This document shows positions 41,140 to 60,004 of a stretch of 64,000 bases of DNA, one piece after another. This DNA is from Acidobacteriota bacterium. Its GTDB lineage: Bacteria > Acidobacteriota > UBA6911 > RPQK01 > JAJDTT01. Within the stretch, counting starts at the first letter, position 1, and every line of letters starts with the position of its first letter. A model generated the notes under the pieces. That model did not search any database. It saw only the letters and a list, made by a program, of their open reading frames with translations, and was not told the origin of the DNA. The stretch lies in the NCBI GenBank assembly GCA_965217775.1, contig CBDCJH010000002.1:3840001-3904000 (forward strand), given 5' to 3'. The position numbers were made by a program, and so were the translations under genes.

Positions 41140-41812
41140 ATGATGAATCGACTCTTTTGCGCCTTTCTGCTGCTGATTGGCTTGGTAGCAGTCCGTGGTG
41201 AAAGTCCCGCGAGCACCGAGACCGTTCCTGCGCCCGCCGGACAAGGCGCGATTCGGGTGCATACCGGGAGTATGTGCCCGAATCGCAACGCAGTCCGCCG
41301 GGATGCAGGGACGGTCGAATGCCGTGGCGACTTTTGCCACGGGCTGGTAGGGTCCATGACAGCCGAGACATCCCGGCAGCCAGGACGCGAGATCGTCGCA
41401 CCCGCGGGGGATCGGCCCGCACGAGTATTGGGACAAGCTCGAACGGAGGCGGAATATGAAGCGTTCGTGGCTCTCAAATCGGCGCTCGGACCGCTGGGAA
41501 AGGCCGAATCGGCGCAAGATTTCCTGGAAAGGTTCCCTCTGAGCGGGCTCTCGCCGCTTGCCCACCAAGCGGACAGGGCATCCGGCAGTTACGCGCGCGG
41601 CGGCCCTGGACGGATTTACGTCGTCGCTGGCCCGTCAGCATCTCGAAAAGATCTACAGGCACCTCCACCCTCCCCTACCGGATGAGGACCAGGAGCGATA
41701 TGAGCTGCGGATCTCGCACGGCTTGAACGGACTCGTCGCTCAAGAGAGGGAATACTACCGATTACGGCAAGGACTTCCCCGAACGGCCAGGAGCGGCGGC
41801 TCGGAGAAGTGA
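41140..41812 (+). pseudogene. Degenerate paralog of the 27018 secreted TPR-like protein with an in-frame MITE and an internal deletion/frameshift
   Basis: AEYEAF..KAESAQDFLERFPLSGLSPLAHQ aligns with AEFDAW..KAELATRFLESFPNSGLTAFAHH; C-terminal homology (RAAALD..RQHLEKIY) lies in another frame. Confidence 0.65.
41189..41346 (+). mobile_element. 158-bp MITE, full copy 4 (in-frame in an ORF)
   Basis: GTAG duplicated at 41185-41188 and 41347-41350; reading frame stays open. Confidence 0.93.
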
Positions 41813-41842
41813 CTTCCGGGCGCCCAATCCTCCACTTTCCAG

Positions 41843-42970
41843 TCAAGCCGTGACGCCGGAAACGGCCTTGTTCAAGGCAGGCATCAGTTCCTTGGCGAAC
41901 AGTTCCAGGTTGCGAATCCAACTCGCCTTGTCGTCCCAGTCGAAGCCCATCAGGACGAGGGTGCCGAAGGGACCACTCTCTTCCATCAGCTCCAACAGCC
42001 GCCGGAGCACCTCGTCGACGTCGCCGGCGATGATCTGCTCCTGGAGCCATAAATCCATGTTGCAGTCGGCGTCCGGCATGTCGAGGTCGCGTTTCAGGAT
42101 CCCCCGGTGCCCCAATGAATTGTCCAACAGGGAGGCGATGTACTCGTAGTTCCCGCCCACCGAGTTGTTGCGCGCCAGCTTTACGGCCTCCTCGGTGGTG
42201 TCGGCGAGGAAAATGGCGCGACAGACTTTCCAGGTCCCGGGATCGGCTTCGCGCCCCGCTTCGGCGGCGGCCCGGGCGTAGGTCGCCCAATTGTCCGCCA
42301 GGACGTTCCCGGTGGCCAGAGCTGCCGAGAAGGGAGCGTACCCGCGCTGGCCAGCCAGGGTGAGGGTGCCCGAGTTGCGGCTGATGCCCGGCATGGCGAT
42401 GGGCGGATGCGGCTGCTGGAGCGGCTTGAATATGAATCCGATCCCCGTCGCCTCATCGACGTTCTCTTCGAGCGAGAACTGCCAGAATTTGCCTTCGTGG
42501 TGGTAGGGCGGGTCCGACGCCCACAGTTTCAGGATGGCGTCCAACGACTCCAGTGTCATAGCCCCGCCATCCTTTGGATGCTGGCCGTAGAGCTCCATGT
42601 CGGTGCTGACGCTGTTGGGCCCGAAGCAGAGGTTGAGCCGTCCCTTCGAGAGGTGATCCAGAAACGCGAGCCGCGTGGCTACGTAGGCCGGATGATGCAG
42701 ATTGAGGCACACGGGCGCGGCTCCCAGACGAATGCGTTCGGTCACTCCGAGCACGCGGCCGATGAACACCTCGGGGACCACGATCGGCTCGAACCTCATG
42801 GTGTGGTGCTCGCCGATCCAGAATTCGTCGAAACCGAGTTCCTCCGCCCGGATGACCAGTTCGACATCCTCGTCGAAGCACTGAGCCAGCGGCTTGCTCG
42901 ATGGGTGGTAGGGCATGATGAAAATGCCGGTTTTGATGGGTCGTGCGCCAGCGTTGGTGTCACCTGTCAT
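41843..42970 (-). CDS. LLM-class flavin-dependent oxidoreductase
   Basis: AEELGFDEFWIGEHH, LDHLSKGR, PLQQPHPPI, LELFAKELMP. Confidence 0.93.
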   Translation of the reverse strand: MTGDTNAGARPIKTGIFIMPYHPSSKPLAQCFDEDVELVIRAEELGFDEFWIGEHHTMRFEPIVVPEVFIGRVLGVTERIRLGAAPVCLNLHHPAYVATRLAFLDHLSKGRLNLCFGPNSVSTDMELYGQHPKDGGAMTLESLDAILKLWASDPPYHHEGKFWQFSLEENVDEATGIGFIFKPLQQPHPPIAMPGISRNSGTLTLAGQRGYAPFSAALATGNVLADNWATYARAAAEAGREADPGTWKVCRAIFLADTTEEAVKLARNNSVGGNYEYIASLLDNSLGHRGILKRDLDMPDADCNMDLWLQEQIIAGDVDEVLRRLLELMEESGPFGTLVLMGFDWDDKASWIRNLELFAKELMPALNKAVSGVTA

Positions 42971-43551
42971 GCGCCGTGTTCTCCTCTCGTCGACGGGGCC
43001 TTTGGGGAATGGTTCCGTGCCAGAAGAATGTTGCGATCGGATTATGGAGTCAACCTCAGAAGAGGAATAAGGAGTGAGAGAAGAGAAGGTGACAGGCACG
43101 CTCCCATGGTGATTGGCTCCCGCTCGACGAAACTGAACCAGGAGTGAAAGTAAGGATATAGAACCTGGGCGAGGCGGCGGCACGAATCCCTCGTCGGGTG
43201 GTTCGCACTTCCCCACTTCACCGGTAGCGGGAGCCGGTCGAGCTCGACCCCCGGTTTCTCCCCTGAATCCGCCGGGTCGCCCCCCGTTGGGGAAGCTTCC
43301 GAGTCGTCCAGGCCGGACCTGTGTCGGCAGCCTGCTTGACGTGTGTTTGCGGCCCGTTTGCTCTGGGGGAACGTTCCGCCGGCCCGTTGGTCTGGAACTC
43401 GGAAATCTGTTTTGTAATATTGGATTTTACGGAGATGCGTACGACGGAACCCGCCACGAACTTACCCGATGGGGAGCTCCGCGGGGTTCTCCATTTCTCC
43501 AAGTTCCATGTTCATCCGGCCCGATTTGTCCTGCTGGCCGAAATAGCCTAG

Positions 43552-43709
43552 CAGCCCGTGGCAAAAGTCATCACGGCATTCGACCGTCCCTGCATCCCGG
43601 CGGACGGCGTTGCGATTCGGGCACATACTCCCGGTATGCACCCGAATCGCGCCTTGTCCGGCGGGCGCAGGAACGGTCTCGGTGCTCGCGGGACTTTCAC
43701 CACGGACTG
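43552..43709 (-). mobile_element. 158-bp MITE, full copy 5
   Basis: CTAG duplicated at 43548-43551 and 43710-43713; 30 nt upstream of the TonB receptor start. Confidence 0.93.
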
Positions 43710-43739
43710 CTAGTCGATTTCATGCGGGAGATTTCCATC

Positions 43740-46700
43740 ATGTCGATCAGAAGCCTGATCCCTTCTTCCTCTCATCCTCGCTTATGGCGCTCTCTGCGCC
43801 GACTGGGGATCGCGGCGGCGATTCTGTTGGCCGGCACGGTCCTGCTTTCCGCCCAGACCGACACCGGCACCATTCGCGGCTACGTCTACGATGAGACCCG
43901 GGCCGTTCTCCCCGGCGTCACCGTTACCGCCACTTACCAAGGCCGCGGCGTGACCCGGGAGACCCTCACCTCGGAGATCGGCGAATACGTCCTGAGCCGG
44001 GTCGATCCCGGCCTCTACACGCTCCGCTTCGAGTTGCCCGGGTTCGCTCCCTACGTGGCCAAGGACCTGGAGGTGCTGGTGGGACAGACCCAGTCCTTTT
44101 CCCCCGAGATACCGGTGGCCGCCGAGGCCGTTGAAATCACGGCGGAAGCGACGCGGGTCAGCATCGCCCACGACAAGACCCAGCAGTCCAACCATATCGA
44201 CTCTGCCAGCATCGAGGATCTGCCCGTCAACCGCCGCGACTACCTGGACTTGGCGCTGCTGACTCCCGGCGTCGTCGACTCGAACTATGTGGCGGATGAC
44301 CGCGACTACCGCATCGCCCCGACCCCCGCGTCCGGACTCGGTATCGGCGGCGGCGGCGGGCGCGGCAACACCTTCACCATCGATGGATTGGACAACAACT
44401 ACGCCACCGGAAGCGTCCGCTCCTCCATCAGTCAGGACGCGGTGCAGGAGTTTCAGATCAACCGCAATTCGTTTTCCGCGGAACTGGGCGGAGCGCCCGG
44501 GGGAGCCATCAACATCGTCACCAAGGGAGGGACCAACGAGTTTCGCGGGTCCATCTTCGGAGTGCTCCGCAACCGGCGCTTCCAGACCCGCAACCACTTC
44601 GATCCGGCCGACTCGGCGTATACAAGGAGCCAGAGTGGGGGGTCTTTTGGCGGCCCCATCCTGCGAGACAGGACATTCTTCTACACCGCCTACGAACGCC
44701 TCGACCGTCACGAATCCTCGTTCGTTCCGCTGCTCCGGGACAGATCGTTCCTGTACGAGCCGACGCCCTCGCAAAAGGCCTTGGCCGGGGCGCTCGGGGA
44801 CGCGGTTCCGCCCCAGTTGGCCCCGCTGGTCCAACAACTTACGGCGGCCTTGATTCCGGGAAACTTCCCCCACGTCGTCCATCTGTTCGAGAGCAACAGC
44901 GGGGTGTTCCCGTTCTCGGAAGAGCGGCAGCAAGTCATAGGGCGCATCGACCATGCGGTGGGCTCCGGGCACAATCTCTTCTTTCGAGGAAACTGGACAG
45001 GACAGAACAGCCAGAACACCAGCTTCGGTTCGCTGGTGGCCCGCAGCCGGGGACGCAACAACAATGTGAACGATTTCGCCCTGGCGGTCGGAGACACCCT
45101 GGTCGTGGGTCCGGAATGGATCAGCGAGACCTGGTTGGGACTGTCGTACCACGACTTCGGGGTCTTCCCGACCGACCCCCACGGACCCTCCATCGACATC
45201 AACGGATTCGGCCATTTTGGACGAGACTTCATCCTGCCGACTCGAAGCCTCCAACGCAGGGGACAGGCCCGGCAGAATTTCACTTACGTCTCCGGGGGGC
45301 ACACGTTGAAGTTCGGTGCGGACGTCAACCTGGGATACAGCAGAGTTCGGTCCGAGACCTTCTTCAGCGGGCGATTCATCTTCGGAGCGGCCGTCCCCCT
45401 TTCAGCTCTGATCGACGCCAGGGGCGGGCCCGGCGCATCCCAATTCGTCAAGCTGTTGCTGACGGGAGCGGGGGCTCCCCACCTGGCGGCGGCAGTGGAC
45501 CACCCCATCTCCTCACTTCAGGCCTACGCGCTGGGCCTCCCCATCGTTTACCAACAGGGCTTCGGCGATCCTTTCTGGCGCGGAGGGGCGAGTACCTACG
45601 GGTTCTTCGTAGAAGACTCCTGGCGGATCCGCCCGAAATTCCTGCTGACTCTGGGACTGCGCCACGAGCTCTTCCGCAAGTCGAATTTTCCCAGAGACAA
45701 CAACAACTTCGGGCCACGCATGGGATTCGCCTGGAGCCCCGATACCAAGACCGTGGTGCGGGGCGGCTACGGTATTTTCCATGCCCGGATCGACGGCCAG
45801 ATCACGTACATTCGGGACCTGCTCTCAGACGAAGTCCAGCAGATCTTTCAGGTCTTCATCCCCTTGACCGGCATCCCGGGAATCAACAGCGCGCTGACCG
45901 GGCAGACGCTCACGTCGGCGGAGATCTACCAGTCGGTGTTGGCCCGGGGCATTCTGGGCAAACGGCAAATCAGGCCTGAGGACTTGGCCATCCACGGCCT
46001 GGTTCCGACTCCCGGACTGCCGTTGCGCGTCGCGTTCACCGTGGCCGACGATATGGTGAACCCCTACGCCCAACAGGCAAGCCTCGAGATCCAAAGAAAC
46101 GTCGGCGGATTTGCCCTCTCGGCCGGGTACAACTTCAACCGCGGCGTCCATATCAGTCCGTGGTGAAAGTCTCGCGAGCACCGAGACCGTTCCTGCGCCC
46201 GCCGGACAAGGCGCGATGAGGGAGCATACCGGGAGTATGTGACCGAATCGCAACGCAGTCCGCCGGGATGCAGGGACGGTCGAATGCCGCGACGACTTTT
46301 GCCACGGGCTGATATCGTCCGCCCGCTCGACGTCAACATCTACCGCGCCGGAACCAACGCCCAAGGACGACCCATCGTCGGTTTTCACAGGCCGGAGATC
46401 CTGCAGGACAACGTCTATGGCAGTTGGTCCAATTCCTTCTATCACGCCCTGATTCTGCAATTGGAGAAGCGCTTTTCGGACGGCGTCGTGATCTCGGCAC
46501 ACCACACCTGGAGCAAGGCGATGGACGAGATCACCGACTACAACTCCTCGTTCCAACCTCACCTGCAGTGGGACGCCGCGGCCGAAACGGCCCTCTCGTC
46601 CTACCATCGCGGTCACCGCTTCGTCTTGCGCACCCTGGCGAAGCTGCCCTGGAAGGCCGGCCGGGGGAAAGGGCTCGGACACAACCTGTTGGGCGACCTC

Positions 46701-47090
46701 ACCCTTTCCGGGATTGTCACGGCACGCTCGTTTGCCCCCTTCAACCTCAATGCCGGCTTCGACAACGTGGGCGACCGCCACACCGACACGCACCGTCCCT
46801 GGGGCCTGGGCCGCAACGTGGGCATCGGACCCAACCTCTTCAGCGTCGACCTGCGCCTGAAGCGCCGAATTTCGCTCGGAGAGGACAAGAGCCTGGACAT
46901 CGTCGCCGAAGGGTTCAACATCCTCAACCGCACCAACTTCAAGCACGTCAACGGCACCGTCGGTACGCTCACCCTGGAGGAGCTCCCGTCCTCGTACACG
47001 GGACGCCGGGGGCCGGTGACGGAACCGTTCTCGTACACCTCGGCATTCGCACCGAGGCAGTTCCAGTTTTCTCTCCGTCTCAATTTCTGA
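43740..47090 (+). pseudogene. Oar-type TonB-dependent receptor interrupted by a MITE (single in-frame TGA)
   Basis: ORFs 43287..46166 and 46239..47090 share a frame; removing the insertion restores GVHIVRPLD; ends in LRLNF. Confidence 0.88.
46154..46311 (+). mobile_element. 158-bp MITE, full copy 6
   Basis: ATAT duplicated at 46150-46153 and 46312-46315. Confidence 0.93.
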
Positions 47091-47202
47091 TGGGCCGAAC
47101 GTAGCTTCCCCGGACGGCAAAGCGAAGGACCGAAGAAATCCGTGCTATTTGCTCCACTATGCGCCGGAGCCGACCCGCCGGCGGTCGGGAGCCGCGCCGG
47201 GA

Positions 47203-48876
47203 TCAGACTCGCGTGGGCAGCGTCCGGTATTCGATGCTCAACTCCAGGCTGTGGAGGATCATCTCGATGCGGACCTGGGGGTTGCGCTTCTCGAGGGTGG
47301 CCTCCAACCGGTTGACTCCCTGCCGGATCCAGTCTCCGTGCGTGAGGTCGTAGGACATGATGTAGTTGCCCTGGTACTCGATGGGCCCCGGACCGACCCG
47401 GTTCATGGGGATCTCCAGGCCGGGGTTTTCAGGCAACGGACGCCCGTTCCAGTTCAGTTCCAGGTCATCTTCCCACGTCAATCCCACCACGGTCAGGCTC
47501 AGCTTGATCTCCTGGAGCATGCCTCTGCGGCGCGCCATGTCCAGGTCGTCCGCCACCAGGACTTCCACCGTCTTGGTCTTCCCTTCGGCCAGCGCCTCGG
47601 GCAGTTGATGCACGAAAGCCTGGAAGACGTCACTGCTGCGGGGGTACTTATTCAAGCAGTCGTAACAGCCGACCTCGGTATAGAGCTTGTCCTTGTGCTC
47701 CAGCGTCTTGGGATTCCCCAACTCCTGGAACACCACCTCGGCCTCCTTCAGATTGTGGCCGATATGGTGGTGGAAGTTGAACATGTAGATCCCGTCGACT
47801 CCCTGACGCCAGGCGTTGGCGGCTCCGGCCCGGAGTGTCGCCGCGGGTGGACGCCGGTGGTAGCCCGGCCCCACTTGTTCGGAAGTGCAGGCGTAGATCC
47901 GGCACGAGGTCCCTTTCGCCAGGGCGACGAACTCGTCGTAGGGCATGCTCGTGGCCGTATCCCAATGGACCCCGGGAGAGACGTAATCGACCAAGCCCTC
48001 CTGGATCCAGGTCTTCAACTCCAGTCCGATCTGATGGCACTTTTCCAGCGTCGCCGGGACCCGGATCCCGAATCCCAGGGGGCGGCCTCGATCGGTTCCG
48101 ATGCGGCTGAACAAGGCCCTGGCTTCACGCAGATACCGGGTCAGGATCGGCCTCCCCTTCTCGATGTCGGGGAAATAGTGCCCGGGCTCGCGCAGGAAAT
48201 CCCACTCGAAGCCGTCGGCATCATAGCGGGTGCACGCGTCCTCTACCAGTTGCAGACGGTGCGCCCGGACCTCAGGTATCGAGAAGTTGAGGCCGACGCA
48301 TTTCTCGGCGTAGACGCTTTCGGGACTATGGACGCCCGAGCCACAGTTGTCTCCCAACTCGTATTCTCGATGGGCAACCCGAAAGTGGCTGGGCCATTGA
48401 AAACGGGGACCGTGCAGATCATTGAAGCGCATGCCGATCCAGTACTGCAGGCCGGCTTCGTGAGCCAGCTCCAGAGAGAGCTGCCAGGGATCGATGCCCT
48501 GGTCCAACAGTCCTCGGATACAGGTCTGCTGTTTCCACTCGCTGACGTGAAGGAACGTGTCCCGATCGATCCCCTCGGCCTCGGGGACCCGGGTGGGAAA
48601 CAGGGGGACCGCGTCGCCGAAGCCGAACATGTGGCAGACGACGGCGCCGATCTGGGTCCCGACGAACCGGCCCACGGCTTCGTAGACGAAGTCCTCAGGC
48701 GTCCTGGGAGGAGCGGGGTAGAAGAGGAAGCTGCCGTCGTTGTTGTAGAACAGAGGCGGCAGCGAAAGGCGCTCCGTCTGGGCCTCAAGAGGCCGGGCCG
48801 ACGCGACTCCGGCCCCCGCCAAGGTCAGCGCGCCCACGTTCCGCTGAAACTCCCTTCGGTTCAGCCTCTTCGCCAT
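47203..48876 (-). CDS. Tat-exported GHL10-like (glycosyl hydrolase-like TIM barrel) protein
   Basis: NRREF Tat motif, YNNDG, RFNDLH, LNFSIPEVR, YDADGFEWDFLR, DGIYMFNF. Confidence 0.7.
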   Translation of the reverse strand: MAKRLNRREFQRNVGALTLAGAGVASARPLEAQTERLSLPPLFYNNDGSFLFYPAPPRTPEDFVYEAVGRFVGTQIGAVVCHMFGFGDAVPLFPTRVPEAEGIDRDTFLHVSEWKQQTCIRGLLDQGIDPWQLSLELAHEAGLQYWIGMRFNDLHGPRFQWPSHFRVAHREYELGDNCGSGVHSPESVYAEKCVGLNFSIPEVRAHRLQLVEDACTRYDADGFEWDFLREPGHYFPDIEKGRPILTRYLREARALFSRIGTDRGRPLGFGIRVPATLEKCHQIGLELKTWIQEGLVDYVSPGVHWDTATSMPYDEFVALAKGTSCRIYACTSEQVGPGYHRRPPAATLRAGAANAWRQGVDGIYMFNFHHHIGHNLKEAEVVFQELGNPKTLEHKDKLYTEVGCYDCLNKYPRSSDVFQAFVHQLPEALAEGKTKTVEVLVADDLDMARRRGMLQEIKLSLTVVGLTWEDDLELNWNGRPLPENPGLEIPMNRVGPGPIEYQGNYIMSYDLTHGDWIRQGVNRLEATLEKRNPQVRIEMILHSLELSIEYRTLPTRV

Positions 48877-51150: not shown

Positions 51151-52632
51151 TCAATTCCTGCGAATGCGAAACGCGTAGACACTGCCTCCACGCAGCCACA
51201 GGCGCAGTTTCACGATCCGTCCCCGCAATTGGCTCAGGTCCCGCCGATTCTTCCAGCGCACCGGCACTCGCAGGCCGTCGACCTGCCGCAGCACGAGGGC
51301 CTCTTCTCGGGAAAAGCCCGGGATCGGCTCATCGTCGGCATTCAGAACCTCGACTGTGAGTTCGCCGTTCGGGACCTCCAGGTTGACCACGACTTCCTCG
51401 CCCTCGACCCGAAACGGCCGGGTGGTGGCCCAGCCCAATCGATCGGATGCAGTCAACGAAACGAAACGATCCAGCGGGACCGTGGCCAAGCCGATGCCGG
51501 TGGGCGCTCCAGCGCTTCCCTGGCCGCTGTGAGAGATGGGACGCCCCACGTAGTAGATCCAGTGCTGGTCCTTCCAGGTGACGATGTTGGGAGCCGGCTG
51601 GATCCATTTGGCGTCGAAGCTTCCGGCGGGGCCGCGGCGCAGGAACGGCTGGTTCCGGTACACCCACTCCAGATTCCAGGGGCGATCCCCGCGAGTCATG
51701 GCCAGAAAGAAGTCCATCTCCTCGCTCTCCCCCGGCCGTTCCAGCGACCAGAGCAGCCCGAATTGGACACCCTCGTAGATCCATCCGTTCAAGCTGTAGA
51801 TCTGGCGGGTCCACTCGTAATCCTTCCTGCCGCTCTCCCGCCCCAGACACCACTCGCGCACGGTCGTCCACTCTCCAAGGTGACTCCGGAGCTCCGTCCA
51901 TGAGTTCACCATGTCCCGGGTTCCCCGAATCTCTCCGCTCCCTCCCCCCGTTCCATAGTCGGTACGGGTGTAGAGTCGGTAGACACCCGAATACGGATCC
52001 CAGAGCACTTGGTTGATGGTGTCCGCGGCCCGGCCGGTGATGGGCCGGCCCTGATCGTAATAGCTCCAGCGCAGGCCGTCGGGGGAATAAGCCAGGGCAG
52101 TGGTGGTGCCGTATCCCTTCCCGGCTCCGACGGCCGACTTGTACTTGTGGCGAGGGTCCTTCTCGTTGGGATCCACAAAGGGGCAGTAGGCCTGCGGCCG
52201 GCCGATCTGATAGATGTTGTTGGCCCGGCTGCCGTCGAATTCCACGAGCCCGAGCCGGGGCTTGACCCAGCGGACCCCGTCCCGGGATTCGGCATAGCAG
52301 TAGGTCGCCGCATCCGCGCCGGAGCCGGCGGCCCGGTACCAGATGCGGAACCGGCCGTCCTCCCGGAGCACGGAACCGACGATGGGCACCCCGAAGTCTT
52401 CCCACGGAGTGTCGTCGACGATGACGGGCCGGCCGCCATTCGCTTTGGTGGGCCGCCTGAGCCGGCGCGCCAATAGGTGCTTCCCGGCAATGACGTGGTC
52501 ATCCACCAAAAGCTGCTTCCGCTCTCCGAATTGAAGAACGGGTCCGTCACCCGGCTCGCCGGCATGGGCCGAGGCGAAGAGCGTGATCACGAACAGCGCG
52601 AAGAGTGGCCGGCGACACCACGGGCAGAGCAT
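51151..52632 (-). CDS. Secreted five-bladed beta-propeller glycosidase-like protein (GH32/GH130-like)
   Basis: KQLLVDDH, YAESRDGVRWVKPRLG, YSPDGLRW, GSFD, IGLA..DRFVS; AGGGGAG RBS. Confidence 0.75.
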   Translation of the reverse strand: MLCPWCRRPLFALFVITLFASAHAGEPGDGPVLQFGERKQLLVDDHVIAGKHLLARRLRRPTKANGGRPVIVDDTPWEDFGVPIVGSVLREDGRFRIWYRAAGSGADAATYCYAESRDGVRWVKPRLGLVEFDGSRANNIYQIGRPQAYCPFVDPNEKDPRHKYKSAVGAGKGYGTTTALAYSPDGLRWSYYDQGRPITGRAADTINQVLWDPYSGVYRLYTRTDYGTGGGSGEIRGTRDMVNSWTELRSHLGEWTTVREWCLGRESGRKDYEWTRQIYSLNGWIYEGVQFGLLWSLERPGESEEMDFFLAMTRGDRPWNLEWVYRNQPFLRRGPAGSFDAKWIQPAPNIVTWKDQHWIYYVGRPISHSGQGSAGAPTGIGLATVPLDRFVSLTASDRLGWATTRPFRVEGEEVVVNLEVPNGELTVEVLNADDEPIPGFSREEALVLRQVDGLRVPVRWKNRRDLSQLRGRIVKLRLWLRGGSVYAFRIRRN

Positions 52633-52777
52633 CTCCCCTGCCGCTGGCCCCGCCAGCCGAGAGACGGCCTCCGATGTTCGGACCAGGAACGGAGGGACGG
52701 CCGCGGCGGCAGAGTTGGTGAGGCTCATTGCGGGAAGAGGCAAGGTTCGCAGATCCTCGACGAACTTGTCAGGCCCC

Positions 52778-54208
52778 TCAGGGATCCGGCGAGCGGATTC
52801 CGAACAGCACCTTGGTGCGCGCCTCCAAGCCTTGCGCCAGGGATTCGACCAATCTCAGACCATTCAGGGCTTCGGTCCGGCTGTAGTAGGTGAGAGCGTC
52901 TTGGGCCAGATCCCCTTCTCCGGCCTGCAACAGCGCCAGCGCGATTCCCTCCACCGTGGCCTGCTCGTCAATCAGGCGAGACTCGAAGGCGGTCAAGGCC
53001 TCCATGACCTCCGGCAGGAATTTCGCTTCGTGGGATTTGGCCAGATAGAACAGACGCTTGCAGGCGCGGAACGCGTACCGCGTCGATTCCACCCCCATGT
53101 CCTGGTCCCTGATGTGGCGGGAGTCCTCGCCTGCGGTGAGGTAGCGATGCTTCTTGAACTCGGGCGGCACATCTTGAACGCCGATGCGGTAGGGGACAAA
53201 CGGCGCCGCTACCGGAGGGGCCGGAGCGACCCACAAGGTCCCCAACTCCCGATGGACGCCTTGGCGCAAGTGGGCCACCTGACCGTAACCGGCGGAATCC
53301 CTGGTGAGTTCCGGGGTCCGAACGACCTCGATCATGTCCTTCAGGCCGATCCGGCCTGCCCTGGCCCGCAGGCGGTCCTCGATCATCTGGACTGCCTCGG
53401 CCTTGTGGGCAGACCGTCCATACACCTTTCCCACATGAAAGGGCTCTCCCGATCCGGGGTCGTACCAGCCACGTTCCACGGCGAAGGAAATCAAGTTCCT
53501 GGATCCCATGAAATCCGGATGCTCCCGGTAATTGAGTGGAACCTCATGGATATAGCCGGGACGAGACACCCGAATGTCGTCCGGTCCCAATCGTTCGGCA
53601 ACCCAGAGGCCCTGGCCGCCCGCGAAGTTGATCAGGACCCACCCCTCATCGGCGTCGGCGAAGAGATGGGAGTTGCCTCCGTAGGTGGAAAAACCGTACC
53701 GGTCAATCAGCTCGCCCACGATCTCCACGGCCGCGCGTGCGCTTCGGGCGCGTTCCATCACAATCCTGGACAGGTCGCTGTAGTTTGGCCCGCGCTGCGG
53801 ATTGGGCGTCATCTCCCGCAGCTCGATCCGGGAGCCGGACGACACGTCGCGGGCCGCGACACCGTGTTCGTTCAATCCGCCATTCGTCAGGGGCGCCGGG
53901 AAACCCGCAAAGTAGGAATAGTTCATGGTCAGGTAGCGAAACGTGGTGGGCACCTGCGGAATCTCGATGAGTTCTCCGGGATAACGGGATTCCGGAGTCG
54001 CTCCCACCGTCAGGGTGGAACCGGCAGGATGCTGCCGGCGGGGCACGATCTCCAACCAATGGCTGGAAGGCTCATCGCCGTATCCGGCCAGAAACACACT
54101 GCCGTCCCGGGTCAGGTTCTTCCCCACGTAGATTGCATAGCTGGCCTCGGCGCCAGAGCCGGTGGCGAGGCTGATCATCAAGCTGGTCAGCACGGTACGT
54201 ATTTTCAT
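52778..54208 (-). CDS. Peptidase C69 (dipeptidase/secernin-like Ntn hydrolase)
   Basis: Signal peptide, SYAIYVGKNLTRDGS, GGLNEHGVA, FADADEGW, LWVAERL. Confidence 0.82.
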   Translation of the reverse strand: MKIRTVLTSLMISLATGSGAEASYAIYVGKNLTRDGSVFLAGYGDEPSSHWLEIVPRRQHPAGSTLTVGATPESRYPGELIEIPQVPTTFRYLTMNYSYFAGFPAPLTNGGLNEHGVAARDVSSGSRIELREMTPNPQRGPNYSDLSRIVMERARSARAAVEIVGELIDRYGFSTYGGNSHLFADADEGWVLINFAGGQGLWVAERLGPDDIRVSRPGYIHEVPLNYREHPDFMGSRNLISFAVERGWYDPGSGEPFHVGKVYGRSAHKAEAVQMIEDRLRARAGRIGLKDMIEVVRTPELTRDSAGYGQVAHLRQGVHRELGTLWVAPAPPVAAPFVPYRIGVQDVPPEFKKHRYLTAGEDSRHIRDQDMGVESTRYAFRACKRLFYLAKSHEAKFLPEVMEALTAFESRLIDEQATVEGIALALLQAGEGDLAQDALTYYSRTEALNGLRLVESLAQGLEARTKVLFGIRSPDP

Positions 54209-54414
54209 GGCGGTGTCCTCATTTTCTTGGCGGCCAGCTCAATCCTGACAGAAAGAGGGGAGAATGCGGGGGTTTGTAACCCTCGATTCCGGGTCGCCGA
54301 TGAAGAGGGGGACAGGAATGTCCCCCCTCCTGGAGTGCCCCATGTTTCTCCCCGGACTCTGCCGGGGTGCCAGCCGGTGGGGAAACGTCTATCTGATACG
54401 AGCGTCGTCCAAGA

Positions 54415-54828
54415 CTACACGTCCACCCGGACGTGCTTCATGGCCTCGTAGGCCGGAGACGGCTTGCCCTGTACGTGGAGGAAGGGGTATCGGTAGTCCT
54501 CCTCTCCCACCCAGCGGGACTCGCCGGTCATGAAAATCACGGTGTAGGCGCGCCGGGAGCGCGGGCTCCGGTTGGGCTCGCTCCGGTGATAGGTCAGGCA
54601 ATGGTGGAACCCAACGCTTCCTTTGCTCAGCTCCACCGGAATCTCATCCCCCAGACGGCTCAGAGCCTCTTGGGTCAGCTTCCAGGTATTCCCGGGCACG
54701 TCCGTCCGCTCGTGATCGAGCAGGCCCAACTTGTGGCTTCCGGGGATCACGGTGAGGCAACCGTTCTCGCGGGTCGCATCCTCCAACGCGATCCAGGCCG
54801 TCAGCATCCGGTAGGGCTGGAAACTCCA
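54415..54828 (-). pseudogene. 5'-truncated duplicate of the phytanoyl-CoA dioxygenase gene
   Basis: Near-identical to 56221..56634 at a constant 1806-bp offset; lacks the HxD motif. Confidence 0.88.
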
Positions 54829-54913
54829 ACGCGCAGCTGATGGTGACTGTCACCTGCTTGCTTGCTGGTGGTTACCCGGTCGCCTTCTATCATGATCACC
54901 CGCTCCCTTCTTT

Positions 54914-56083
54914 TCATGCGTTCTGAAGCAACATCGCCAGCTCGGAGACGCTGATCGCCTCAACGCCTTCGGTGACCGGGAAGCGCTCGTCGCCGGAATG
55001 CGCGACGAACGCATGGGCCGGCCTCAGGTCCGCGCGGGCGTTGTGGAAGCCGCGGTCCAGTCTCGGGGCGCGGCCCCGCTTGATCTCTATCGCCCACAGT
55101 TCGCCGCTCGGCAACTGAAGCGCGAGATCGACCTCGGCGCCGGCGGAAGTGCGGTAAAAACTGGCCGTCGTCCGTTCCGGGGCGGCCGCGAGCAGATTCT
55201 CTATCACATATCCTTCCCAACTGGCGCCGGCCACAGGATGGCCGGCCAGCGCATTGAAATCGCCAATGCCGAGCAGAGCGTGCAGCAGGCCGCTGTCGCG
55301 TATGTAGATCTTCGGCGATTTCACAAGCCTTTTCCCGACATTGGCGCGCAAAGGAGCCAGGCGCCGCACCAGCAGCAAATCGGTCAAGAGTCCGATATAG
55401 CGATTCACGGTTTGCACGCTCACACCCAATGACGAAGCCAGCCGGGAGGCATTCAACAGGCCTCCCTGGCTGTGGGCCAGCATGATCCAAAGGCGTTCCA
55501 GCGTTTCCGCGGGGAGGCGGGGCCCGAACAAGGCGACGTCGCGCTCCAGGTAAGTCCGGATAAAGTCCTTGCGAAGAAGAAAGCTACGCCTTCCGTCAAC
55601 GGCCAGAAAGCTGTCCGGGAAGCCGCCCCGCACCCAGAGCCGGGTGGGCGTGTCACTGCCGCCCGCCACCTCGAGGAGGTGGAACGGCTGCATGTCAATA
55701 TAGGCGATCCGGCCGGCAAGGCTCTCGCTGGACTGGCGCAACAGATCCATCGACGCGGAGCCGAGGATCAGGAATCGTCCGGTCCGTTTTCCTCGCCGCC
55801 GGCCGCTGTCGATGACCCCTCGAAGATCCTGAAACAGTCCGGGAACTCTGTGGATTTCATCGAGAATCACGAGGCGGTTTTCGTAATGGCTCAGGAACAG
55901 CGCCGGGTCGCTCAGCTTTTGCCGATCGGTTCGGTCTTCGAGGTCGAGATATAAGGCTCCGCGCTCTTCGCCGATATCCAGCGCGAGCGTGGTCTTGCCA
56001 GCTTGGCGCGGGCCGATAATGGCCACCGCTGCCTGGTAACCAAGCGCCTCAAGAACGCGGGGCTTGATATGCCGCTCTATCAT
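54914..56083 (-). CDS. AAA+ ATPase (AAA_14) with DUF4143 and C-terminal PD-(D/E)xK-like domain
   Basis: GPRQAGKTT, ILDEIH, LILGS, LAGR, RGGFP, KSPKIYIRDSG, EVDL..AIEIK. Confidence 0.93.
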   Translation of the reverse strand: MIERHIKPRVLEALGYQAAVAIIGPRQAGKTTLALDIGEERGALYLDLEDRTDRQKLSDPALFLSHYENRLVILDEIHRVPGLFQDLRGVIDSGRRRGKRTGRFLILGSASMDLLRQSSESLAGRIAYIDMQPFHLLEVAGGSDTPTRLWVRGGFPDSFLAVDGRRSFLLRKDFIRTYLERDVALFGPRLPAETLERLWIMLAHSQGGLLNASRLASSLGVSVQTVNRYIGLLTDLLLVRRLAPLRANVGKRLVKSPKIYIRDSGLLHALLGIGDFNALAGHPVAGASWEGYVIENLLAAAPERTTASFYRTSAGAEVDLALQLPSGELWAIEIKRGRAPRLDRGFHNARADLRPAHAFVAHSGDERFPVTEGVEAISVSELAMLLQNA

Positions 56084-56122
56084 CCTTGTATATTATCCAT
56101 ATAATGGACAATTAACAAGGAT
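56082..56122 (-). promoter_or_regulatory. AT-rich inverted repeat overlapping the RBS and start of the ATPase gene
   Basis: ATCCTTGT..TCCAT-ATA-ATGGA..ACAAGGAT. Confidence 0.55.
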
Positions 56123-56220
56123 AGGATCCACTCCGAGGAAAGAAGCCGTCTATGTATTCCACAGGAACGAGAATGCCTCCGCTCGTGGACGCGTGGGCGG
56201 GTCCGGCACGCGTTCCCGAC

Positions 56221-56982
56221 TTACCCGTCCACCTGGACGTGCTTCATGGCCTCGTAGGCCGGAGATGGCTTCCCCTGAACGTGCAGGAAGGGATACCGGT
56301 AGTCCTCCTCCCCCACCCAGCGGGATTCGCCGGTCATGAAGATCACGGTGTAGGCGCGCCGGGAGCGCGGGCTCCGGTTGAGCTCGCTCCGGTGATAGGT
56401 CAGGCAATGGTGGAATCCCACGCTTCCTTTGCTCAGCTCCACCGGAATCTCATCCCCCAGACGGCTCAGAGCCTCTTCGGTCAGCTTCCAGGTATTCCCG
56501 GGCACGTCCGTCTGCTCGTGATCGAGCAGGCCCAACTTGTGGCTTCCGGGGATCACGGTGAGGCAACCGTTCTCGCGGGTCGCATCCTCCAACGCGATCC
56601 AGGCCGTCAGCATCCGGTAGGGCTGGAAACTCCAGTAGTACATGTCCTGGTGGGGCGGGACCACGCCCCCGTCCAGCGCCGGCTTGGCAAAGAGCCCGTC
56701 GGCGTAGATGTCCAGGTCGGGGCCGAGGATCCGCTCGACGACCGCTGCCAACTTGGGATGCGTGGCCACGGACCGAAAGGCGGACTCGCGGTGGAGCAGC
56801 CCGAAGGCGTTCCGGAGCGCGGAAGGATTGGTCGGCTCCCACTTGAGATCGCCCTCGGGGTAAGGAAGCTCCCTCCTTTCCAGGACATCCACCCGGGCCA
56901 TGAGTTCGTCCATCTCCGCAGGAGTGAAGACGTTGTCCACAGTGACGTAACCGTTCTCGTCAAAGAAGCTCTTGAGGCTCAT
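56221..56982 (-). CDS. Phytanoyl-CoA dioxygenase (PhyH) family protein
   Basis: FAKP, PPHQD, WIALEDATRENGCL..PGSH, HRS..N.S..RR; GGAG RBS. Confidence 0.93.
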   Translation of the reverse strand: MSLKSFFDENGYVTVDNVFTPAEMDELMARVDVLERRELPYPEGDLKWEPTNPSALRNAFGLLHRESAFRSVATHPKLAAVVERILGPDLDIYADGLFAKPALDGGVVPPHQDMYYWSFQPYRMLTAWIALEDATRENGCLTVIPGSHKLGLLDHEQTDVPGNTWKLTEEALSRLGDEIPVELSKGSVGFHHCLTYHRSELNRSPRSRRAYTVIFMTGESRWVGEEDYRYPFLHVQGKPSPAYEAMKHVQVDG

Positions 56983-57109
56983 CGATTCTCCCTCTCCGGA
57001 CCTTCCTGCCCAATGCAGCACAACAATATAGACGCAGCTCCCTTCCGGAGCAAAGCCGGGTGTGGTTCTGGCAAGACGGTCGGAGCCGCCGGAAACGGCG
57101 CCATTGTGG

Positions 57110-57892
57110 TCAGCTGGAACTCTTGCCGGCGGCTTTCAGTCCATACAAATTCAGGAGTTCGATGAAGTCCTGACTTTGACGAAATCCGTCGAAAACGCCG
57201 TCCGCCGCCAGCCGTTCCTGGTCCGCGAATCCAGCCGCCAGCGCCCTCCCCAGATACTTCAGGCACTGGGGCTGGTCCCCCATTTCGGCAAAGAGGCGGG
57301 CCAGATTGTAGTTCGTCTCCGAGTCCATTCCCATGGGGTCCGGATAGGTCACGCGGGAGACATTCGTTGTCTTGAAGATTTCCGGGTCCAGGAGCGCGGC
57401 TTGGAGGTAGGCTCGGCGTGACTCCTCGTACCGGCCCCGCATCATCTGGCCGTAACCCAGATTGACGTAGTAGGACGGCTTGGGATCGAGGGCGATGGCC
57501 TTTTCGAAATAGCCGGCCGCCTGCTTGTACTTTCGATTCGAAAGGGCGACGATTCCCAACGTGTTGTAACCCGAGGCGTATCCCGGCTGGAGCCGGATGG
57601 AGCGTTGCGCGGCCTTCCTTCCCTGCCAGTATCGCCCGGTCCGGCAATAAGCGATGGCCAACTTGTTGAAGATGGCTTCGTGATACGGATTCAGCGTCGT
57701 CGCTTCGACGTATTTCAGGACCGCCAGATGGTCCTTTCCCTCTTTCATCATCTCGTCGGCCTCCCCCATGAGGCGGTATGCCGCGATCACTTGCTCCTGT
57801 GGAACCGGCAACTTCTTGATGCGTGAAGTACCGCAACCGAGGAGCGACCCGGTCAAAACGATGATGGCTGCGTCCCGGAATCGTAGGGACAT
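57110..57892 (-). CDS. TPR lipoprotein
   Basis: LLGC lipobox, TPR repeats, TPR end-of-group-like tail (YNLARLFA..LGRALAAGF). Confidence 0.88.
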   Translation of the reverse strand: MSLRFRDAAIIVLTGSLLGCGTSRIKKLPVPQEQVIAAYRLMGEADEMMKEGKDHLAVLKYVEATTLNPYHEAIFNKLAIAYCRTGRYWQGRKAAQRSIRLQPGYASGYNTLGIVALSNRKYKQAAGYFEKAIALDPKPSYYVNLGYGQMMRGRYEESRRAYLQAALLDPEIFKTTNVSRVTYPDPMGMDSETNYNLARLFAEMGDQPQCLKYLGRALAAGFADQERLAADGVFDGFRQSQDFIELLNLYGLKAAGKSSS

Positions 57893-58057
57893 TGTTCAGT
57901 TGCGTCCGAAACTCCCCGGCGTCTCGGACCTGGGTTCGGAGCGCGAAACTCGGCGACGGGAACCGTATCCTTGTATGCTCCCGATTATATCGAGAAAGTT
58001 CGTTTTCGGGTGCCGGGCTCGAATCCTTGGCGCTTCATGAAAAGGGAGGTCGCAAGT

Positions 58058-59563
58058 ATGACTCTTCACAGGATGTTGGTTGTTCTCATCGGAATCGGCC
58101 TGTCGCTGCAGCCAGGCGCCGGGGCCGGCAAGGAGACGGTCCTTTTCCCGTTCGACGACTACAGCGTTCCCTTCAGCAAGGGCTTGGTGCTCGAACTGAT
58201 CCCGGGCCGGAAGGGCGCGGTCAACAAGGGCACCGGAGCCGATCCCCTGCACCCGAGCAAACCGGTCGTCCCTCCGGGCATGCCGGGAGACCCGGACCAC
58301 CCGCGGGTCTACTACTACGGCACCGTCCTGAAAATCGATGGCGAGTACCGCATGTGGTACACCGGTTGGGACAAGGACAGGAAGAGGCAGGTCCTCTATG
58401 CCGTCTCCCGGGACGGGGTCCGCTGGGACAAGCCGGACCTGGGACTCGTCGAGTACAACGGGAACCGGCAGAACAACCTGGTGCTGTCCGACGGCAAGGG
58501 GCCCATGAAGGGAGCCTTCTGCCTGGTCCTCCACGAGCCGGACGATCCGGACCCCGGACGGCGCTTCAAGATGGTCCGGGAAGAGCATCCGCGAGCCATC
58601 ATGGCAGCCTACAGTCCCGACGGGCTGCACTGGACCGACTCCTCCAACAACCCCATCATCAAGAGCAGCGGCCTGGAGACGGGCGGCCTGATTCGGTTCA
58701 ACGGCTTCTACTATTTGAACGGTCAGGGGGGACCGATCCCCCACCCCGTCCCCAAGGCCCGGAACCGAATCATGGTCACTTTCGTCTCCCACGACTTCGA
58801 CCATTGGAGCGATGCGGCCCATCTCAGCTTCCGGAGGGATCCCATCCCACCGCGTCCTCTCAACGATTTCGAGATCCATCGCGGCGAACAGGTCCACATG
58901 GGGGCCAGCCTCTGGAACCGGGGGAACGTGATCCTCGGCTTCTACGGCCAATACCACAACCAGACCAACGACCGACGCTATTCGACCTGCGACCTGGGCC
59001 TGGTGGTGAGCCACGACGCCATCCATTTCAAGGAGCCGATCCCCGACTTCAAGATCCTGCCCTCCTACGAGGAACCGGACGGGGCGGAACCGCGGCTGAT
59101 CCAGGGGCAGGGGTTCGAGAACATCGGCGACCGGACCTTCTTCTGGTACAGCATCTGGGTCGCGTTCGACCCGGAGGGGCCCACCGGTGTCCGTCTGGCC
59201 ACCTGGGGCCGGGACCGGCTGGGATATTTCGCTGCGGCGCCCCGGACGCAGGGCGCCCATTTCTTCTCTACGCCAATCGAATTGGATTCCCCGCAGACGG
59301 AGATCTACGTCAACGCTTCGGGGTTGTCCGAGACGAGCCAACTCCGGGTCGAGGTCCTGGACGGCCGGCTCCAGCCAATGCCCGGTTATTCGGGAGACGC
59401 TTCGATTCCGCTCCGGAAACCGGGACTGCGGCAACGGGTGGCCTGGAGCGGCAAGGACCAACTGGCAGGAGCGGACGGGCCAATCCGCGTGCGCGTGAAC
59501 TGGGAAGGGATTTATCCGGAAGACGCTCGCCTTTACGCCGTCTATGTGGTGGAGAGCGATTAG
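58058..59563 (+). CDS. Secreted five-bladed beta-propeller glycosidase-like protein
   Basis: Signal peptide, YRMWY, YAVSRDGVRWDKPDLG, YSPDGLHW, DRLGYF; GGAGG RBS. Confidence 0.78.
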   Translation: MTLHRMLVVLIGIGLSLQPGAGAGKETVLFPFDDYSVPFSKGLVLELIPGRKGAVNKGTGADPLHPSKPVVPPGMPGDPDHPRVYYYGTVLKIDGEYRMWYTGWDKDRKRQVLYAVSRDGVRWDKPDLGLVEYNGNRQNNLVLSDGKGPMKGAFCLVLHEPDDPDPGRRFKMVREEHPRAIMAAYSPDGLHWTDSSNNPIIKSSGLETGGLIRFNGFYYLNGQGGPIPHPVPKARNRIMVTFVSHDFDHWSDAAHLSFRRDPIPPRPLNDFEIHRGEQVHMGASLWNRGNVILGFYGQYHNQTNDRRYSTCDLGLVVSHDAIHFKEPIPDFKILPSYEEPDGAEPRLIQGQGFENIGDRTFFWYSIWVAFDPEGPTGVRLATWGRDRLGYFAAAPRTQGAHFFSTPIELDSPQTEIYVNASGLSETSQLRVEVLDGRLQPMPGYSGDASIPLRKPGLRQRVAWSGKDQLAGADGPIRVRVNWEGIYPEDARLYAVYVVESD

Positions 59564-59570
59564 CGGATTC

Positions 59571-59639
59571 TTATGGGTTCCAGGGAAATCCCTCCCGCAC
59601 TACGAGATCTCTGCCCGACGGGTCCCGGGGCAAACTCAT
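59571..59639 (-). pseudogene. HicA-like toxin N-terminal remnant (22 aa)
   Basis: ATGA-coupled to the HicB-like gene; MSLPRDPSGRDLV resembles HicA starts (MxLPRDxSGxxL), then stops. Confidence 0.55.
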
Positions 59640-60004
59640 ACAGCGATGACCTTTTGGCGGGGAGAATAGCAGTCCGTGGTGAAAGTCCCGCGAGCACCGA
59701 GACCGTTCCTGCGCCCGCCGGACAAGGCGCGATTCGGGTGCATACCGGGAGTATGTGCCCGAATCGCAACGCCGTCCGCCGGGATGCAGGGACGGTCGAA
59801 TGCCGTGATGACTTTTGCCACGGGCTGATAGAGTCGAATCACTTTCGGTCGATCGCGCTTTTCAAAATGACACCGGACAGCATCCGGCATCGCGGCGTAA
59901 AGCTGCGGAAGCGTGCCTGCTTCTGTGAGAATCGAAACCCCCAATGCGCGCGCCGTGAATCCACTCTCTGGCGCCTCTTCGACGACGAATACAATTTCCT
60001 TCAT
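59636..60004 (-). CDS. HicB-like antitoxin carrying an in-frame 54-aa MITE insertion
   Basis: MKEIVFVVEEAPESGFTARALGVSILTEA..DAVRCHF..PKVIRLY[54 aa]SPRQKVIAV. Confidence 0.75.
   Translation of the reverse strand: MKEIVFVVEEAPESGFTARALGVSILTEAGTLPQLYAAMPDAVRCHFEKRDRPKVIRLYQPVAKVITAFDRPCIPADGVAIRAHTPGMHPNRALSGGRRNGLGARGTFTTDCYSPRQKVIAV
59670..59827 (+). mobile_element. 158-bp MITE, full copy 7 (in-frame in a minus-strand ORF)
   Basis: ATAG duplicated at 59666-59669 and 59828-59831. Confidence 0.93.

Follow-up and report, generated by a model that had tools for sequence, protein, structure and literature searches.

The window, a 64,000-nt stretch of the genome of an Acidobacteriota bacterium, contained seven copies of a MITE that was present in the genome as 213 full copies plus fragments. 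These copies lay between genes, at gene ends, and inside ORFs, where the host frame was broken in some cases and read through in others (Table 1).

Table 1. Positions of the MITE copies in the window and of the ORFs and genes discussed with them.
Feature	Position	Strand	Remarks
MITE copy	4005..4162	+	TSD TCAA; closed frame, breaks AbiEii-like gene 3835-4566
MITE copy	15115..15272	+	TSD CTAG/CTAT; holds stop codon of FG-GAP/UnbV_ASPIC gene 15273-17030 (minus strand)
MITE copy	29856..30013	-	TSD TTAG; intergenic, a few bases off 3' end of gene 30019-32154 (minus strand)
ORF, 183 aa	41134..41685	+	MITE read through
MITE copy	41189..41346	+	158 nt, TSD GTAG on both sides; five of six frames open; inside ORF 41134-41685
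MITE copy	43552..43709	-	TSD CTAG; intergenic in our own gene calls
TonB-dependent receptor gene	43827..47090	+	CarboxypepD_reg and OMP_b-brl_4; interrupted by the 46154 copy
MITE copy	46154..46311	+	TSD ATAT; closed frame, breaks TonB-dependent receptor gene 43827-47090
ORF, 138 aa	59636..60052	-	Small protein of ~68 aa, 54 MITE residues and native final 9 residues
MITE copy	59670..59827	+	158 nt, TSD ATAG; inserted cleanly and in frame into the minus-strand small gene, nine codons ahead of its stop

An earlier note on this DNA had reported two ORFs that carry the MITE in different frames, and we found both: ORF 41134-41685 reads through the 41189 copy and ORF 59636-60052 through the copy at 59670-59827. 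The peptides quoted in that note are the true translations of the frames of the 41189 copy. ORF 41134-41685 had no family match and no full orthologue in five congeners, where it returned just partial matches of 30–60 aa, and it looks like a remnant. The product of ORF 59636-60052 had been labelled HicB-like, a label that found no backing in Pfam or NCBIfam for either this protein or its MITE-less 68-aa orthologue (85% identical) in the congeneric genome G001. That orthologue was found by searching the genus with the MITE-free part of the ORF as the query; the whole 138-aa ORF matched the MITE only.

The MITE is small, present in high copy number, and devoid of a transposase gene. It forms a full-length hairpin of 158 nt (dG −59.2 kcal/mol, z −9.4) that is self-complementary over nearly all of its length, with terminal inverted repeats of ~18 nt in which the termini CAGTCCGTGGTGAAAGTC and GACTTTTGCCACGGGCTG are paired across 18 positions. 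A 4-bp target site duplication (TSD) was perfect in 154 of the 213 full copies, with NTAN-like targets including TTAA, CTAG, TTGA, ATAT, GTAG, and similar tetranucleotides. A scan of the MITE against Rfam returned no family (best E 0.27). The full copies measured 158 nt (n = 149), 159 nt (n = 34), 160 nt (n = 20), or other lengths (n = 10). The 159- and 160-nt classes are defined by common indels and are older than the 158-nt class, with identities of 91% and 87.5%, respectively.

Among the 31 genomes searched, the family was limited to one genus of Acidobacteriota, being found in all eight congeneric genomes and in none of 22 other genomes from the same family and order. Diverged relatives (63–79% identity, 157–170 nt) occurred in MAGs labelled as other phyla, comprising Planctomycetota, Armatimonadota, Phycisphaerales, and Vicinamibacteria MAGs, and a length of ~158 nt was retained even in copies with just 63–67% identity. 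Empty sites were identified by DNA comparison for an AlbA_2 gene (in G006, with a 4-nt overlap) and by protein-level comparison for a TPR gene (in G007) and for the small gene at 59636-60052 (in G001).

A candidate partner insertion sequence (IS) of 1475 bp (L002, positions 156-1630) carries the terminal inverted repeat CAGCCCGTGGCAAAAG, a CTAG duplication, and the domains DUF772 and DDE_Tnp_1. This IS occurs three times in the genome, and its terminal sequence is identical to the MITE ends. The MITE, whose ends and 4-bp CTAG duplication it shares, is presumably moved by it in trans. The end of the transposase falls in a second frame, and the partner IS may be inactive in this genome. A further IS, with the Pfam domains Transposase_20 and DEDD_Tnp_IS110, interrupts the MITE in four places, each time at the same fixed position.

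The distribution of the copies was analyzed against gene calls from a home-made, conservative caller run on the MITE-removed genome (4358 genes, 82% coding), which missed both ORFs cited in the earlier note. The 213 copies comprised 148 intergenic copies, 33 with a stop codon inside the duplication, seven within a gene's last six codons, four within its first 12, and 21 deep inside genes. When the 154 copies with a perfect TSD were compared with expectations weighted by the availability of target tetranucleotides, deep intragenic copies were depleted about 4-fold (20 observed vs. 79.9 expected), and stop-codon copies were in excess (22 observed vs. 5.5 expected). Relative to sites called intergenic, the stop-codon excess was 2-fold (22/130 vs. 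0.079, p = 0.0008); any genes that the caller missed were counted as intergenic, which may have inflated this value in part. The placement of 33 of 213 copies exactly on a gene's stop codon is a firmer pattern than selection for peptide insertion. A terminator or 3'-end role was considered and rejected: the shares of convergent, tandem, and divergent spacers matched target availability (p = 0.59), and the orientation at stop codons (18 same, 15 opposite) gave no support. Many copies adjoin gene ends because the target is stop-codon-like. The NTAN-like targets are scarce within GC-rich genes, and insertions into genes are probably mostly lost, so that copies would build up intergenically and at the precise site of stop codons, the stop being regenerated there by the duplication.

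Insertion of the peptide in frame, as claimed in the earlier note, does occur: 13 of the 19 deep intragenic 158-nt copies are read through. This proportion did not differ from the 0.66 expected from random insertion (binomial p = 1.0), and the numbers of open frames in intragenic and intergenic copies were similar (4.37 vs. 4.21, p = 0.5). By chance, a copy that keeps the frame on landing in a gene would leave it open about two times in three, and read-through would add a 54-residue stretch rich in Arg, Pro, Ser, Gly, Ala, and Cys. The 13 hosts included three that look intact, at least five that are decayed, and a remaining five or six in neither group. The intact-looking hosts, a TPR protein, a LamG/He_PIG protein, and an AlbA_2/HATPase_c_4/HTH regulator, bear clean insertions, and their relatives have empty sites or uninterrupted orthologues. 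In a TonB receptor among the read-through hosts, the native 5' end is gone and a signal peptide is missing; a sulfatase is without its first 128 codons in this genome; the domain of a Cu amine oxidase spans just positions 3–240 of 407; a DUF1156 host reached only 86 bits, far below the cut-off of 1000; and an ISNCY transposase is partial. Read-through alleles may last for a while, mainly in dispensable or already decaying genes.

We consider the element to be, with a probability of roughly 0.7, an ordinary non-autonomous MITE of the IS5/IS1182 type whose in-frame insertions are incidental and reflect no adaptation. It shares with prokaryotic IS5/IS1182-derived MITEs the terminal inverted repeats, the 4-bp TSD at CTAG/TTAA-like sites, the lack of a transposase gene, the stable hairpin, a copy number in the hundreds, and an autonomous IS in the genome whose termini and duplication match, and nothing essential sets it apart from them. 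Several observations count against this reading. Sequences with at least five open frames are uncommon among shuffles and random genomic 158-mers, and the minus strand is open in nearly all copies (both detailed below); intact-looking hosts exist; and a PyrK-like protein from another genome carries the MITE peptide between cysteines of its C-terminal Cys-rich segment. In addition, 158-nt copies were enriched among those deep inside genes (19/149 vs. 2/64 for other lengths; Fisher p = 0.042), and among 68 copies sampled from other genomes, all three intragenic ones had a length plus duplication divisible by three (3n) and were read through.

This enrichment, the three copies from other genomes, and the clean insertions in the TPR, LamG, and AlbA_2 genes would also be expected if an unadapted element were passively filtered, its 3n and mostly stop-free form being less harmful in genes, surviving longer there, and occasionally leaving lasting protein parts, as argued for Rickettsia palindromic elements (RPEs). 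A sulfatase insertion points the same way: the allele with the MITE was common to all 10 cluster members covering the site, which were 92–100% identical. For one host, a sulfatase carrying the MITE (P0044), AlphaFold predicted the host fold confidently (mean pLDDT 85.4), and the insert (residues 369–422) was placed between a helix (364–367) and a strand (432–436), without predicted structure. However, the low pLDDT of the insert is partly an alignment effect and would be expected anyway, as the insert is present in only 3 of 63 alignment rows, and further damage was seen in most of the MITE-bearing sulfatase alleles, only 2 of 10 being complete at both ends relative to MITE-free orthologues. 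Moreover, the length contrast is confounded by age, since copies of other lengths are older (89% vs. 96% identity), and the open-frame rate of the 3n intragenic copies equals chance. Passive filtering is an unlikely alternative to an ordinary MITE, and a stronger form of it is more doubtful still, namely that the 158-nt subfamily owes its dominance in part to a 3n size and a minus strand free of stops, which aid survival in genes, with some 54-residue loops now stable, translated parts of working Acidobacteriota proteins (TPR, LamG, AlbA_2 regulator, PyrK-like, and sulfatase).

The earlier note had proposed that the MITE may have been shaped by selection to be frame-neutral and free of stops, and that it may serve to generate peptide insertions. 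Its arithmetic (158 + 4 = 162 nt, never causing a frameshift) and its count of five open frames in six hold for the 41189 copy and do not extend to the family: length plus duplication was 3n in 154 of the 213 full copies, the consensus of the 158-nt copies has four open frames, and the 149 individual 158-nt copies have five (72 copies), four (31), three (39), or two (7). In the 68-copy sample from other genomes, 40 copies measured 158 nt and 45 were 3n. Minus-strand frames were nearly always all open, with stops in 6, 2, and 2 of the 149 copies. In favor of the proposal, at least five open frames occurred in only 1.9–2.8% of dinucleotide shuffles, 1.3–2.3% of hairpin-preserving (pair-column) shuffles, and 5.1% of random genomic 158-mers; frequent shuffles of this kind, which the note had named as contrary evidence, were thus not seen. 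The corresponding values for at least four open frames were 14%, 7.5–10%, and 26%. The retention of ~158 nt in strongly diverged copies also fits the proposal. When substitutions were relocated to test for stop avoidance, the minus strand had 10 new stops vs. 34.3 expected, and the plus strand showed the opposite trend (124 vs. ~43 expected); the test is weak, as the variants are mostly common by descent, with few independent events. Against selection for coding tolerance, about 90% of the copies lie outside the depleted gene interiors, and the copy number therefore cannot be driven by how well genes tolerate the element. Furthermore, subfamilies with two to four open frames were amplified equally, the older subfamilies measure 159–160 nt, the diverged relatives have one to three open frames, and intragenic copies showed no frame filter. 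Two other outcomes named in the note as contrary were found in part: lengths off 3n do occur, and many in-frame hosts are decayed, while some look intact. The proposal is already largely refuted by these results, and we regard it as very improbable. The 3n size is a property of the youngest and most abundant subfamily, and the scarcity of stops, mainly on the minus strand, is consistent with a GC-rich hairpin; neither bears signs of upkeep by selection.

Searches of public protein databases, as suggested in the earlier note, were made with three of the frames and matched 43, 25, and 120 predicted proteins carrying the MITE peptide. Apart from the frame beginning QPVAK, the two frames searched gave proteins with a Pfam domain in just 11 of 43 and 7 of 25 cases, and 22 of the best 35 QPVAK-frame representatives were shorter than 150 aa, so that at least a third of each such "protein" consists of the repeat. 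Several database proteins have the peptide at their extreme N-terminus, which suggests over-extended starts. It is nevertheless hardly credible as the main account that many of these proteins are annotation artefacts, open frames spanning a GC-rich repeat and not translated in that form; clean internal insertions flanked on both sides by homologous sequence exist.

In-frame fusions of MITEs with genes are already known from RPE, ERIC, and QMITE elements. RPEs are described as palindromic repeats lying in frame inside protein genes, to which they add a peptide, with compatibility with the host fold being argued; for three families, the review states that nearly half lie inside ORFs (PMC10969869). 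ERIC and other small mobile sequences of enterobacteria are reported to contribute open frames joined without a frameshift to chromosomal ORFs, either within these or at a 3' or 5' end (Delihas 2007, as cited in PMC3184786 and PMC10969869). Going by these descriptions, the present MITE resembles RPEs in being a palindromic repeat of roughly 100–150 bp found in frame in genes, and ERIC in its repeat-borne open frames fused with ORFs, whereas the element families and hosts differ from those of ERIC. In contrast to the RPEs so described, just 21 of its 213 copies are deep inside genes, gene interiors are depleted 4-fold, and many hosts are decayed. The present MITE showed neither unusually frequent insertion into ORFs nor retention of the host frame beyond chance.

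The insertion sequence IS1111 is a member of the IS110 family. In Coxiella burnetii, QMITE2 is described as a hot spot for IS1111, and QMITE1 and QMITE2 as hairpin MITEs lying over gene 3' ends, sometimes providing a stop or a C-terminal extension (PMC5896051). The present MITE is similar in its 33 copies on stop codons and in the fixed position at which the IS with DEDD_Tnp_IS110 is inserted. As described there, QMITE2 has direct repeats of 7–11 nt and a GTAG-type REP core, whereas the present MITE has a 4-bp TSD and IS5-type ends.

If the MITE were tuned for tolerance in coding DNA, the RPE phenomenon would extend to free-living bacteria and provide a mechanism for the addition of protein loops; the stronger form of passive filtering, if true, would likewise give free-living soil bacteria a path to protein tinkering that resembles that of RPEs. 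The data indicate instead an ordinary MITE with in-frame insertions at the chance rate. Such a repeat inflates protein predictions, with dozens of database "proteins" holding its translation, and it serves as a marker of recently disrupted or decaying genes.

One repeat accounted for seven copies in the window (G000:C2:3840001-3904000 in the source genome, G000), five on the plus and two on the minus strand, all starting with CAGTCC, ending with GGGCTG, and flanked by a 4-bp direct repeat. A blastn search with the copy at 41189 as query revealed 213 full-length copies in the 6.43-Mb genome: 149 were 158 nt long, 34 were 159 nt, 20 were 160 nt, and 10 had other lengths. Perfect 4-bp duplications bordered 154 of the 213, most commonly TTAA (27), CTAG (19), TTGA (13), ATAT (13), and GTAG (12). 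The element, a single end-to-end hairpin (DNA dG -59.2 kcal/mol, z -9.4; 0 of 200 shuffles folded as well) with no family in Rfam, is a typical IS5-type hairpin MITE. An internally deleted derivative of approximately 95 nt, retaining positions 1-52 and 107-158, was present in four copies.

Coordinates of MITE copies in the window and of related elements elsewhere
Feature	Location	Strand	Direct repeat
MITE copy	4005-4162	+	TCAA
MITE copy	15115-15272	+	CTAG/CTAT
MITE copy	29856-30013	-	TTAG
MITE copy	41189-41346	+	GTAG
MITE copy	43552-43709	-	CTAG
MITE copy	46154-46311	+	ATAT
MITE copy	59670-59827	+	ATAG
~95-nt mini-MITE	G000:C2:985933-986027
~95-nt mini-MITE	G000:C2:3579131-3579227
~95-nt mini-MITE	G000:C2:4889634-4889726
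~95-nt mini-MITE	G000:C2:5007959-5008055
IS110-type IS within MITE	G000:C2:1656572-1658241
IS110-type IS within MITE	G000:C2:3134809-3136482
IS110-type IS within MITE	G000:C2:5760147-5761892
IS110-type IS within MITE	G000:C2:6039542-6041283
Same-end elements in MAGs labelled as other groups	loci L029, L031, L043, L078, L050, L054, L067, L085

The likely autonomous partner of the MITE is a 1475-bp IS, present in three copies, with CAGCCCGTGGCAAAAG as its terminal sequence, CTAG as its duplication, and a transposase (DUF772 + DDE_Tnp_1) whose end lies in a second frame. In the one copy of the three that was examined, the transposase was split over two frames (L002 222-1577(-) and 242-547(-)), with DUF772 and DDE_Tnp_1 sharing one frame and a different frame encoding the C-terminal DDE_Tnp_1_6 part; this may represent a frameshifted inactive copy or programmed frameshifting. 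A different IS of approximately 1.5-1.6 kb, encoding a 317-aa IS110-family (DEDD) transposase, was located inside the MITE at four places (loci L001 and L003), always at the identical position between MITE nt 64 and 71, which suggests that it targets the hairpin site-specifically. This resembles the targeting by IS1111 of Coxiella QMITE2, described as a hot spot for that IS in a report that also places QMITEs over gene 3' ends (PMC5896051).

To locate the copies relative to genes, we removed all 213 copies and one duplication each from the genome and called genes with a hexamer model trained on long ORFs. This yielded 4358 genes, which occupy 82% of the genome; the calls were conservative, with only 215 genes below 100 aa and both ORFs named by the earlier note uncalled. 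Of the copies, 148 were intergenic, 33 duplicated a stop codon, 7 lay in the last 6 codons, 4 in the first 12 codons, and 21 were deep intragenic. When expected placement was weighted by the frequency of each used tetranucleotide per compartment, the expectation for the 154 perfect-duplication copies was 79.9 insertions deep within genes, 63.7 between genes, and 5.5 at stop codons; the observed numbers were 20, 108, and 22, respectively. Gene interiors were therefore approximately 4-fold depleted and stop codons approximately 4-fold enriched. The 33 stops hit (TAG 14, TAA 12, TGA 7; genome usage 1112, 451, and 2794) fit a TA-centred target. At these sites, the MITE directly follows the coding sequence and the duplication regenerates the stop, as with the window copy adjoining gene 15273-17030(-). 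Spacers carrying copies showed no convergent, tandem, or divergent bias (p=0.59), and MITE orientation within spacers was likewise unbiased. In the window, the sequences at 15267-17338 and 35306-37380 form inverted 2-kb repeats, 91-94% complementary, which comprise paralogous FG-GAP/UnbV_ASPIC genes and part of the adjoining TPR gene.

The earlier note had described the MITE as frame-neutral, with 158 nt plus the 4-bp duplication giving 162 nt, so that insertion never shifts the frame, and five of six frames open. Both statements hold for the copy at 41189, and the observation stands for the copies that the note examined; for the family it stands only in part, since 154 of 213 copies have a length divisible by three (3n) with the duplication and the consensus has four open frames. 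Among the 149 copies of 158 nt, 72 had five open frames, 31 had four, 39 had three, and 7 had two. Closures were concentrated on the plus strand (frame +1 in all 149, +2 in 75, and +0 in 45), with the minus-strand frames closed in only 6, 2, and 2 copies. The 159- and 160-nt classes are genuine subfamilies whose members have indels in common: in 19/34 and 12/20 copies, respectively, position 64 is followed by an additional base, and 14/20 of the 160-nt copies have another after position 110. Both classes are older, matching the query at 91% and 87.5% identity, versus 96.3% for the 158-nt class, and have fewer perfect duplications. At least five open frames proved uncommon: dinucleotide shuffling produced them in 1.9% of cases for the consensus and 2.75% for the 41189 copy, and they occurred in 1.3-2.3% of shuffles preserving the hairpin pairs and 5.1% of 20,000 random 158-mers from the source genome. 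At least four, the consensus state, were commoner (14%, 7.5-10%, and 26% for dinucleotide shuffles, hairpin-preserving shuffles, and random 158-mers, respectively).

Tabulation of frame usage by intragenic copies did not bear out the proposal that the MITE has been selected for tolerance in coding DNA and acts as a peptide-insertion generator. Nineteen of the 21 deep intragenic copies were 158 nt long; 13 of these kept the host frame open and 6 closed it, while both 159-nt copies broke it. When random 158-nt copies were placed in silico at target sites within coding sequence, the read-through fraction was 0.66 overall (0.28 in the same orientation as the gene, 0.945 in the opposite), so that 13/19 represents no excess (binomial p=1.0). 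Open frames were also not in excess in intragenic compared with intergenic copies (4.37 vs 4.21, p=0.5). With read-through at the random expectation and genes depleted of copies, the data give no support to selection for frame neutrality. Copies of 3n length may nevertheless be favoured by a weak passive filter: 19/149 of the 158-nt copies were deep intragenic, compared with 2/64 of other lengths (Fisher p=0.042), although the other classes are older, which confounds this contrast.

Fusion of MITE ORFs with genomic ORFs has precedents. A 2024 review includes the statement that in-frame fusion of intragenic MITE ORFs is not unusual and singles out RPEs for the frequency of such fusions (PMC10969869), and PMC3184786 describes repeats fused within genes as well as at their 3' and 5' ends. 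The literature on acidobacterial MITEs, as listed, held nothing obviously about this family; the large survey PMC11602168 may include it.

The read-through hosts, which comprised twelve distinct ORFs with usable gene scores and one dubious ORF, were examined by Pfam, NCBIfam, and comparison with congeners. Three looked intact and carried clean insertions: a TPR protein with a signal peptide (MITE-free site in G007, ...ERAD|IMVRL), a LamG/He_PIG protein (flanks of the site contiguous in five congeners), and an AlbA_2/HATPase_c_4/HTH regulator (empty site with a 4-nt overlap in G006). The regulator gene carries one MITE on its start codon and one between domains, neither present in G006. These two belong to a group of three copies within 2.4 kb (G000:C2:6054954-6057353; L014, L021), the third of which is 159 nt long and breaks the ORF after the regulator gene. 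Many in-frame insertions are in decaying loci. A TonB-dependent receptor, MITE-free in five congeners, lacks a signal peptide and is not collinear with G002 over its first 214 nt; a sulfatase lacks its first 128 codons; a Cu amine oxidase domain is cut at position 240 of 407; and a weak DUF1156 protein and a partial ISNCY transposase are also decayed. The other hosts had no family match in Pfam or NCBIfam.

Translation of the two window ORFs confirmed that they read the MITE in different frames. In the 138-aa ORF at 59636-60052, the MITE has inserted cleanly into the gene for a 68-aa protein, nine codons ahead of the stop; the MITE-free orthologue of this protein in G001 is 85% identical and ends in ...IRLHFLRQEIIAV; the label HicB-like found no support in Pfam or NCBIfam. 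The 183-aa ORF at 41134 differs: in five congeners it had partial matches (30-60 aa) but no full orthologue, and it looks like a remnant, as the earlier note suspected. The copies at 4005 and 46154 inserted in the closed frame, the former disrupting an AbiEii-like gene and the latter a TonB receptor gene. A 300-nt direct repeat (54416-54715 and 56222-56521; 95% identical, 1.8 kb apart) overlaps called minus-strand genes.

Protein databases were searched with the MITE peptides of three frames, and each gave matches. The SPWQK frame matched 43 predicted proteins over 91 aa (Pfam domain in 11/43), the VRGES frame 25 (7/25), and the QPVAK frame 120 representatives at E<=0.001, of which 35 reached E<=1e-10; 22 of these best 35 were under 150 aa. 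The most informative case was a sulfatase cluster, in which the peptide occurred at the same place in all 10 members covering the site (92-100% identity); MITE-free orthologues are approximately 615 aa long (71-88% identity), and G007 has the empty site. Only two of the 10 were complete at both ends, six having a replaced C-terminal tail and two lacking the N-terminus. An AlphaFold model of one complete allele (P0044) was confident overall (mean pLDDT 85.4, pTM 0.86) and placed the insert (residues 369-422) after helix 364-367 and before strand 432-436, in a segment of low confidence that lacks predicted structure; low confidence is expected there anyway, because the insert is present in only 3/63 alignment rows. 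In agreement with the modelled position, alignment to PDB 9fo1 breaks off at ...PLLN and resumes later. In a PyrK-like protein from another assembly, the VRGES peptide lies between the cysteines of the C-terminal Cys-rich segment, which are probably its iron-sulfur ligands.

The MITE was found in all eight other genomes of the genus, whereas a search of 22 further genomes from the family and order detected no copy. Among 68 copies from other public genomes, a non-random sample of the matches listed, 40 were 158 nt long and 45 were 3n; three were intragenic by our criteria, all 3n and open. Relatives in MAGs labelled Planctomycetota, Armatimonadota, Phycisphaerales, and Vicinamibacteria share the MITE ends and CTAG duplication and are only 63-79% identical, 157-170 nt long, with 1-3 open frames; their length remains near 158 nt. 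Copies 93-96% identical were observed in a MAG labelled Aminicenantes. Relatives in MAGs labelled as other groups may reflect horizontal spread or binning error. In-frame peptide insertions by this MITE are real, but they occur at the chance rate amid strong depletion from genes.
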